From UHGV virus genome UHGV-0301654: 10,290 bases of DNA; one strand, 5' to 3'. The position numbers and the translations under genes are program-made. Of the stretch, positions 8,330 through 9,612 are shown piece after piece (the first letter of the stretch is position 1; each line of letters opens with the position of its first letter). Origin of the DNA: a virus. The notes beneath the pieces are model-generated. The model saw only the letters and a program-made list of their open reading frames with translations, was not told where the DNA came from and made no database searches.

Positions 8330-9350
8330 GCCGCGAAGAAGTCAGCCGGCGATGCCGGCACATCAGCCCGTGAGGCGGCAACCCATGCGACTGATGCTGC
8401 AGGCTCAGCACGCGCAGCCAGCACGTCAGCCGGACAGGCCGCGTCGTCGGCTCAGTCAGCGTCTTCCAGCGCAGGAACGGCATCAACAAAGGCCAGTGAA
8501 GCATCGAAAAGTGCTGCTGCTGCAGAGTCCTCAAAAAGCGCGGCAGCTACCAGTGCCAGTGCCGCGAAAACGTCAGAAACGAATGCCGCAGCGTCACAAC
8601 AATCAGCAGCCACTTCTGCATCCACCGCGACCACGAAAGCGTCAGAAGCTGCCACCTCAGCCCGGGATGCGGCGGCCTCAAAAGAGGCAGCGAAATCATC
8701 AGAAACGAACGCATCCTCGAGCGCCAGTAGCGCAACTTCCTCGGCAACGGCGGCAGGAAATTCCGCGAAGGCGGCAAAAACGTCCGAGACGAACGCTAAG
8801 TCTTCTGAGACGGCAGCGGGACAGAGCGCCTCAGCTGCGGCAGGCTCAAAAACAGCGGCTGCATCATCTGCCAGCGCCGCGTCAACAAGTGCCGGGCAGG
8901 CCTCAGCCAGTGCCACCGCCGCCGGAAAATCGGCAGAAAGCGCCGCATCATCCGCTTCAACAGCCACAACGAAGGCTGGCGAAGCCACTGAACAGGCCAG
9001 CGCAGCAGCGAGTTCTGCTTCCGCAGCGAAGACATCCGAAACGAACGCGAAAGCGTCGGAAACCAGCGCAGAATCCTCAAAAACGGCTGCCGCATCGTCA
9101 GCCAGTTCGGCGGCGTCATCGGCATCATCGGCGTCTGCTTCAAAAGATGAGGCGACCAGACAGGCGTCAGCAGCGAAGGGCAGCGCCACGACAGCATCCA
9201 CGAAGGCGACAGAGGCAGCTGGCAGTGCGACGGCGGCAGCACAGAGCAAAAGTACGGCGGAATCCGCGGCAACGCGCGCCGAGACAGCGGCAAAACGGGC
9301 AGAGGATATTGCATCCGCCGTGGCGCTTGAGGATGCGAGCACGACGAAAA
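8330..9350 (+). repeat. in-frame degenerate repeats in the Ala/Ser/Thr-rich fibre shaft
   Basis: The peptide AAKTSETNA recurs three times (about 8562, 8766 and 9019), with related AKSSETNA and ASTKA(S/T)EA units. GCN-rich periodic DNA. Confidence 0.6.
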
Positions 9351-9612
9351 AGGGGATAGTACAGCTCAGCAGTGCGACCAACAGTACGTCTGAAACGCTG
9401 GCGGCAACGCCAAAGGCAGTAAAATCAGCCTATGACAATGCAGAGAAACGTCTGCAGAAAGACCAGAACGGCGCTGATATACCCGATATTGGTGCTCATA
9501 CGCACTCCGTTGCGATTGGTTCACATGGACACACCATCACCGTTAACGCTGCTGGTAACGCGGAAAACACCGTCAAAAACATCGCATTTAACTATATTGT
9601 GAGGCTTGCATA

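Follow-up and report, generated by a model that had tools for sequence, protein, structure and literature searches.

The question raised by the 10,290-nucleotide viral genome UHGV-0301654 (the window, to which all positions refer unless another contig is named) is whether the 476-codon open reading frame (ORF) that it carries, related to the side tail fibre gene stf of phage lambda, encodes a working fibre of unusual design or is what is left of one. A reading of the sequence alone (the sequence-only reading) had described this ORF as a repeat-bearing fibre shaft joined by a short linker straight to the lambda tip and had regarded it as a recombinant or abridged mosaic. The data described below led to the conclusion that window 8154-9613 is very probably a side tail fibre gene of the lambda type reduced to a nonfunctional remnant ('stf), belonging to a Qin-type defective prophage. 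This was deduced mainly from two deletions that removed the start and the receptor-binding end of the gene. These deletions are supported by the following data.

The window copy was aligned with lambda Stf (Ur-lambda, 774 aa), with a full-length Stf of the same allele from Escherichia coli strain 2017-02-2CC (WP_338387517, 980 aa; L002), and with the fibre of E. coli NWU_3 (L001). Window 7500-8154 and 8153-9488 were 100% identical to NWU_3 and window 9484-10290 was 98.3% identical, NWU_3 carrying an additional 416 bp and 1740 bp between the matching blocks. That the long forms of NWU_3 and L002 arose by insertion is unlikely, since their additional part is the gp37-homologous domain. The first of these gaps, deletion junction 1 (Table 1), joins codon 123 of a portal gene (B', in a region 100% identical to L001 5716-6370) to stf codon ~72 across TT, a microhomology of 2 nt. 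As 416 = 3 x 138 + 2, the deletion shifts the frame, and after portal codon 123 the reading frame continues for 20 out-of-frame codons in stf to a stop at 8211-8213. The fibre ORF is therefore left without a start and without an N-terminal domain. Stf residues 1-72 were absent from the window copy in the alignment with the lambda, L002, and L001 proteins, the stf frame is closed upstream by a TGA at 8147-8149, and the sole "start" of the 476-codon ORF is an internal GTG at 8183 that lacks a Shine-Dalgarno sequence. The sequence-only reading was silent on both the missing genuine start and the direct out-of-frame fusion to the truncated portal gene. In NWU_3 itself, ~220 portal residues are fused in frame to Stf residue 14 (L001 6001-9987, WP_278233982), giving a 1328-aa ORF that RefSeq labels "prophage tail fiber N-terminal domain-containing protein." This B::Stf fusion is likely the precursor state of the window remnant.

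The second gap, deletion junction 2, is in frame and lies immediately after the conserved post-shaft segment (the neck), which is homologous to Mu S/S' (8ju3, 5yvq). As had been noticed earlier, the protein passes from TPKAVK through 21 residues straight into its final 41 residues (IGAHTHS...IVRLA), the stop codon of which overlaps the tfa start (TAATG). The 21 residues, which had been taken for a short linker, were found to be the normal continuation of this fibre type, seen also in Mu S/S'. The missing DNA, measured between ...GADIP(D/G) and IGAHTHS, corresponds to the variable middle and the gp37-like domain, which NWU_3 and L002 keep. Because the two parental sequences read ...ATACCCGAT|AAGGGA... 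and ...ACTGTCGGT|ATTGGT..., the crossover was placed in their shared TA. The several hundred residues that the sequence-only reading placed in between in lambda Stf were borne out by the alignment (about 320, including GKQPKNATLTALAGL).

The "lambda tip" is just the last 41 residues of a domain of ~230 residues, a point on which the sequence-only reading was likewise silent. L002 aa 750-979 matched the tip of T4 gp37 (PDB 2XGF) at E = 1.8e-84; the final 41 residues of the window copy are nearly identical to that tip, and only these 41 of ~215 aligned residues are kept. The receptor-contacting head domain of 2XGF lies in the middle of this stretch and is therefore deleted in the window copy. 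The final tip was predicted to be disordered, with a predicted local distance difference test score (pLDDT) from AlphaFold2 (AF2) of about 30.

Of the features that mark a functional Stf, the window copy has the A/S-rich heptad shaft and the conserved neck, and it is followed by tfa. It lacks a complete PF08400 domain with a genuine start, the gp37-like receptor-binding domain of ~230 aa with several HxH motifs, and a place after J and lom within an operon holding all the tail genes; upstream of it are W and the 123-codon portal stub. With the lambda Stf-Tfa pair it shares the second half of the N-terminal domain, the heptad shaft, the neck, the last 32 residues, and the overlapping tfa, at 77% identity over the aligned columns. 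It differs from lambda Stf in the loss of residues 1-72, in 15 extra heptads, in the absence of everything between the neck and the last 41 aa (the lambda QPKNATLTALAGL region and most of the gp37-like domain), and in following a truncated portal gene, whereas lambda stf follows J-lom. L002 is alike in shaft, neck, tip, and tfaQ but, unlike the window copy, keeps its N terminus and lies downstream of J and lom.

When the entire ORF was used as the query, thousands of relatives were returned, and none of the top matches covered >96% of it. A collinear full-length match to a functional fibre of the same length, which the sequence-only reading had named as its refutation, was sought and not found, and the description of the fibre as abridged therefore stands (427 or 580 codons lost, relative to L002 and NWU_3, respectively). 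The description as a functional mosaic did not hold, the cause being prophage decay. When 103 residues spanning the second join were used as the query, the join was found only in ORFs of 103 to 133 aa (P0121, P0122, P0126, and P0127), and no protein of >133 aa with this join was present in the searched database. Gene callers had left the fibre ORF uncalled in four related contigs (L024-L027). The tblastn comparison of the ORF with a phage collection gave fragmentary matches (coverage <=32%), its low-complexity filter masking the shaft, and DNA and MAFFT comparisons were used in its place.

Since the tip-tfa region is present in many copies in E. coli (6732 places in 3910 genomes) and is prone to misassembly, both junctions might be suspected of being assembly artefacts. 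Junction 2, however, was contiguous in two complete genomes (MB19 and 20AR0354) and in several drafts; in these two genomes even more of the shaft is deleted and the Prokaryotic Genome Annotation Pipeline (PGAP) marks the pieces as a pseudogene. The 142-aa ORF created by junction 1 was found in draft and metagenome assemblies (NCBI and ENA; at least 41 index blocks), including Qin-locus contigs L024-L026, while this junction was contiguous in 0 complete RefSeq E. coli genomes. Furthermore, a mis-join in a de Bruijn graph needs much more shared sequence than the 2 to 3 nt of microhomology seen here. From the occurrence of the junctions in other assemblies it was concluded that neither is an artefact, and an artefactual origin of both carries a negligible probability.

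Some observations weigh against a dead remnant. No stop codon interrupts the 476 codons of the ORF, the second deletion preserves the frame, and the stop/start overlap with tfaQ is intact; translation from the internal GTG, or via a frameshift from B', is possible on the sequence alone. The allele is kept in many assemblies and at two loci, and the same right-hand endpoint recurs in many independent fusions, which simple random decay does not predict. The open frame, the in-frame deletion, the overlap, and the persistence would also suit a functional short protein, either a natural mosaic or a protein domesticated as a decoy or for defence, comparable to the chimeric StfE2 that Pin inversion produces in e14, and prophage fibre remnants can act against phages (PMC12529663). 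This alternative was judged very unlikely. The start codon has no supporting context, the frame differs from that of B', the first half of PF08400 and the receptor-binding domain are gone, and the last 50 aa are predicted to be disordered. In addition, the further deletions of the remnant in MB19, P0121, and L023 look like neutral decay.

The preferred interpretation of 'stf as a decayed, and probably unexpressed, gene would involve the following steps. The intact gene of this allele would have encoded an N-terminal tail-attachment domain, a shaft of ~50 heptads, the neck, a variable middle, and a T4 gp37-like collar/needle/head receptor-binding domain needing Tfa to fold. An older B::stf deletion would first have removed every head and tail gene. 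The 416-bp deletion, proposed to have arisen by out-of-frame illegitimate recombination at the 2-nt microhomology, would then have brought portal codon 123 to stf codon ~72, and an in-frame deletion of 1.3 to 1.7 kb, likewise by illegitimate recombination, with T|A microhomology would have linked ...GADIPD to the last 41 residues, probably in this order. Such a remnant is a textbook product of prophage decay, and its proper annotation is a pseudogene rather than a "tail fibre protein."

The repeats of the shaft had been read as a sign of slippage or unequal crossing-over within the gene. The three copies of AAKTSETNA and the related units are indeed present: exact copies start at aa 127, 197, and 281 (nt 8561-8587, 8771-8797, and 9023-9049), AAKSSETNA is at aa 169 (nt 8687-8713), and looser K[TSA]SET[NSA]A units are at aa 206 and 290. 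All AAKTSETNA and AAKSSETNA copies are in heptad register. Residue identity along aa 37-386 peaked at all multiples of 7 and at no other lag (z = 8 to 11 at lags 7, 14, ... 42 against 500 shuffles), a repeat signal above chance. Strict self-comparison gave only the diagonal with blastp and no off-diagonal match with blastn-short at E <= 1e-3. The periodicity was then revealed by relaxed blastn, in which the offsets of the internal DNA self-matches were all multiples of 21 nt at an identity of only 55 to 67%, and by the autocorrelation test. The AF2 run, a monomer model built on 25 sequences, predicted two helical stretches (aa 23-198 and aa 216-386); block means of pLDDT were mostly 64 to 84 and fell below 50 at about aa 179-220 around the helix break. 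The shaft probably forms a trimeric coiled coil.

A recent origin of the repeats in the window strain, by replication slippage or unequal crossing-over, could draw on the variation among alleles, which have two to four AAK[ST]SETNA units, and on lambda, which is without the 15-heptad block. It was nevertheless considered highly improbable. The window shaft is ungapped and collinear with the full-length fibres of unrelated strains, at identical length and at 100% (NWU_3) and 97% (L002) DNA identity. The DNA copies of AAK[ST]SETNA are only 77 to 88% identical to one another and differ at synonymous sites, and Tandem Repeats Finder reported no array in the gene beyond a micro-array of 22 nt with a 9-nt period. 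The repeats are thus normal, old, phase-locked units of an alpha-helical shaft that have diverged at synonymous sites. The block of 15 heptads, which contains the third AAKTSETNA, is the only shaft difference from lambda Stf; it is absent in Ur-lambda Stf, is present in full-length E. coli prophage Stf, and is common to most E. coli relatives. The count of three plus one units matches the window in 67 of 120 database relatives, and the remaining ones have two or three. As judged from these alignments, gain or loss of blocks in whole heptads has occurred in the history of the family and not in the window copy. Since the alleles differ by whole heptads, the phase of the coiled coil is kept, and a strictly phased Stf shaft of ~50 heptads with such length polymorphism is relevant to fibre engineering.

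The recurrence of the right-hand endpoint was examined with the top-120 list from one protein search (P0121-P0240). Among the matches listed, 30 of the 46 short E. coli ORFs ending in the tip join exactly at |IGAHTHS, with about 28 left partners; in another four the join is three codons further upstream, and the remaining 12 have joins spread across the following 80 codons. The left partners include Nu1, terminase A, C, D, E, Z, T, I, a ParB-like protein, and Stf itself. The fusions examined lie in different prophages, at ydfJ (L005, L013, and L014), beside a diguanylate cyclase (GGDEF-domain) gene and ybhB (L006 and L023), and at an nmpC-type porin gene (L007 and L022), and those at GGT|ATT always spare tfa. 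The native sequence at the endpoint is ...CATACTGTCGGT|ATTGGTGCTCAT... (site sequence GGTATTGG), within the conserved stf tip sequence leading to tfa, ATTGGTGCTCATACGCAC. For 11 left parents, either read as DNA or deduced from lambda and related loci, T|A was common to both parents in all 11 crossovers, with 2 to 5 nt of microhomology. A twelfth left partner, P0192, is uncertain, as lambda reads GAC|A there. The residue before the join was never K, E, Q, M, or W (0 of 30), which fits a fixed third-position T, and one allele has a +1 A insertion exactly at the GGT|ATT endpoint.

These data might be explained if the join at 9487|9488 were the product of a site-specific break or nick at ...CTGTCGGT|ATTGGTGC... 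within the conserved tip of stf, or of some other process directed by the sequence there. The clustering of 30 of the 46 listed ORFs at one point in different prophages and loci, the T|A in every usable crossover, the +1 A insertion, and the restricted preceding residue all point this way. A recognisable recombinase or nuclease site was not found, however, and the survey is one search list rather than a census. In addition, four fusion sets have a common left end and a different right end, with flanks differing by 4 to 6%, and P0207 is a secondary derivative of a P0127-type allele via a 7-nt repeat, so the fusion events are not all independent. On balance, a site-specific break was regarded as possible, with the odds somewhat against it. 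If it occurs, the broken end would be joined to upstream DNA by 2 to 5 nt of microhomology, and the site would drive the decay of lambdoid prophages. More generally, and more tentatively still, ...CATACTGTCGGT|ATTGGTGCTCAT... may be a sequence-specific break or recombination hotspot of E. coli lambdoid prophages, allowing directed domestication via a fixed DNA end, a proposal we hold to be rather doubtful. In that case a nuclease, recombinase, or replication-pause mechanism would repeatedly make one fixed DNA end, which would join upstream TA microhomologies, deleting head, tail, and fibre genes and always sparing tfa (and pin). If a census confirms the shared endpoint and the sparing of tfa, these would suggest that a specific mechanism, or selection, shapes which prophage genes are retained.

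The sequence around the endpoint contains no hairpin or cruciform (DNA fold z = 0.8), and no terminal inverted copy marking a mobile element and no promoter or terminator signals were found there. A serine-invertase site at 9487|9488 was rejected, as GCATACTGTCGG-TA-TTGGTGCTCATA is without dyad symmetry (12-2-12) and its core is TA, versus TC/GA for the pix core; the local pix sites also differ from it in sequence. Inspection of the endpoint by eye gave Chi at 5 of 8 positions and, for dif, only the XerC-arm core GCGCATA, and it gave no support for IS1, Mu, and insertion sequence (IS) ends, an EcoKI site, or Vsr NTWGG. When viral contigs were scanned for GCGCATACTGTCGGTA with a non-T base after it, as would mark insertions at the site, all matches were unrelated and due to chance. 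A second place at which unrelated N-terminal sequences are joined to the fibre was observed at window ~9302-9315 (...KRA|EDIASAV..., GAGGATATTGCA). Here, P0121, P0122, and P0127 show two different partners at |EDIASAV and one at |IASAV, and GAT|ATTG at this place resembles the main GGT|ATTG.

The box that the sequence-only reading had described in lambda Stf was said to survive separately on the other strand. It is present there, at 3643-3681, and it reads QPKDATLTALAGL, one residue off the earlier quotation. Between 3711 and the pix site, the minus strand has an open frame for ...KQPKDATLTALAGLATAADRFPYF...VIEYLGLQETV (also given as ...KQPKDATLTALAGL...), which represents the truncated constant (Sc) part of another fibre gene, joined via a pix site to an invertible segment. 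The pix sites (TTATCTAAAACC-TC-GGTTTACAGGAA and its partner; 26 bp) are inverted at 451-488 and 3500-3537, are 92% complementary, and enclose two Sv-tfa cassettes head to head beside the invertase stub. The module thus has the inverted TTATCnAAACC-NN-GGTTTnnGGAA sites flanking Sv-tfa, and there is evidence of its inversion: the whole window is 99.7 to 99.8% identical to metagenome contig L027, in which 451-3537 (3.1 kb) is inverted at 99.8%. The segment therefore flips in nature. The adjacent serine invertase is a 72-aa stub, and with pin truncated the inversion must be catalysed in trans, presumably by another Pin; PinQ acts in trans on e14 (PMC12529663). Window 451-3537 is a segment of the Mu G, P1 C, and e14 P kind (Gin/Cin/Pin), with its inverted pix sites, two Sv-tfa cassettes, and adjacent pin, and differs from these in that the Sc part and pin are truncated and the module is separate from 'stf. 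The QPKxATLTALAGL box was also considered as the missing middle of the window fibre gene and was rejected, because the deleted segment of the nearest relatives is without the box. The idea of a displaced survivor of the window fibre was given up on the same grounds, and the Sc fragment belongs to a separate fibre module of the Mu G/e14 P type.

Table 1. Features of the window and the evidence for each
Feature	Position	Strand	Basis or remark
Serine invertase (pin) stub, 72 aa	206-424	minus	Resolvase profile positions 2-73 of 145
Truncated constant (Sc) part of other fibre gene	3538..3711	minus	carries QPKDATLTALAGL
DUF1398/ydfO gene	4051-4476	minus	ORF list and Pfam
ynfO-like gene	4518-4751	minus	ORF list and Pfam
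Nu1/nohA	5140-5685	plus	ORF list and Pfam
Terminase A	5660-7585	plus	ORF list and Pfam
gpW	7582-7788	plus	ORF list and Pfam
142-aa ORF, codons 1-123 = lambda-family portal	7785-8213	plus	ORF list and Pfam
Portal gene B' N-terminal fragment, codons 1-123	7785..8153	plus	PF05136 Phage_portal_2, profile positions 2-93 of 354
Deletion junction 1	8153..8154	plus	416 bp (L001 6371-6786) missing vs NWU_3
476-codon fibre ORF	8183-9613	plus	ORF list
Stf N-terminal (tail-attachment) domain remnant, second half only	8156..8356	plus	ORF aa 1-58 = PF08400 positions 77-134 of 134
Shaft, ~50 uninterrupted heptads (A-x-x-S-x-x-x)	8291..9340	plus	lag-7 periodicity, AF2 helix
105-aa block, 15 heptads, including third AAKTSETNA	8864..9178	plus	alignment A1 columns 500-604
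Conserved post-shaft segment (neck), 50 residues	9338..9487	plus	identical in L001, near-identical in L002
Deletion junction 2, in frame	9487..9488	plus	1740 bp (580 codons) missing vs L001; 1281 bp (427 codons) vs L002
Last 41 codons and stop of T4 gp37-type domain, two HxH motifs	9488..9613	plus	alignment, PDB 2XGF match
Tail-fibre assembly gene, tfaQ-type, 191 aa, intact	9613-10188	plus	PF02413 Caudo_TAP, E = 3.5e-44

The surroundings of 'stf were assigned from gene order and from near-identical loci, in which the genes carry the RefSeq names ydfO, ynfO, nohA, tfaQ, and pinQ, which come from the cryptic prophage Qin. Locally, the genes run ydfO, ynfO, cos, nohA/Nu1, A, W, B', 'stf, tfaQ. 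This is the Qin-type order, ydfO-ynfO-cos-nohA ... 'stf-tfaQ with the morphogenetic genes deleted, and by the ORF list and Pfam the window has none of the head and tail genes that belong between B and stf. Window 4013-10290 was 98% identical to Qin-locus contigs that run on into pinQ, ydfK, and ydfJ', and contigs with the same 'stf (L024-L026) sit at ydfJ. These comparisons place window 8154-9613 inside what appears to be a Qin-type defective lambdoid prophage of E. coli. Qin of E. coli K-12 (nohA - 'stfQ - tfaQ - pinQ) has the same gene order and locus type as the relatives of the window, and its fibre gene, like that of the window, is a 5'-truncated pseudogene. In K-12 Qin, A, W, and B' are gone and the 3' part of stf that is left, of 234 codons, is a different one, whereas the window keeps A, W, B', and the shaft and is without the middle of the gene. 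On its left flank, the window lineage differs from K-12 Qin in an extra invertible fibre module and a diguanylate cyclase gene.

The window shows neither chromosomal flank; its first part, 1-7173, matches a prophage beside the diguanylate cyclase gene and ybhB near bio, and the near-identical L027 has the diguanylate cyclase gene on its left. In the full-window search, zero complete genomes covered >=80% of the window, and the source configuration was present only in L027. A breakpoint inside terminase A was observed at window ~7173, corresponding to positions 15169-15173 of L010 (E. coli Z0117EC0098). In two complete genomes the left 7.2 kb of the window is 99.9% identical, and past this break inverted lysis genes follow, which reveals a further large-scale rearrangement of this defective prophage. 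Upstream of nohA, a 26-nt inverted repeat at 5059-5115 resembles the hairpin of the lambda cosB region and is presumably an ordinary lambda-type cos feature. Finally, an 80-nt inverted repeat, 93% complementary, is formed by tfa 3' ends at window 92-171 and 10100-10179. It brackets nearly the whole window, and its left copy abuts the truncated pin gene. This repeat could allow the 10-kb region to invert, and it may account for the position of a Qin-type block beside a prophage of the bio/ybhB region in the window lineage.

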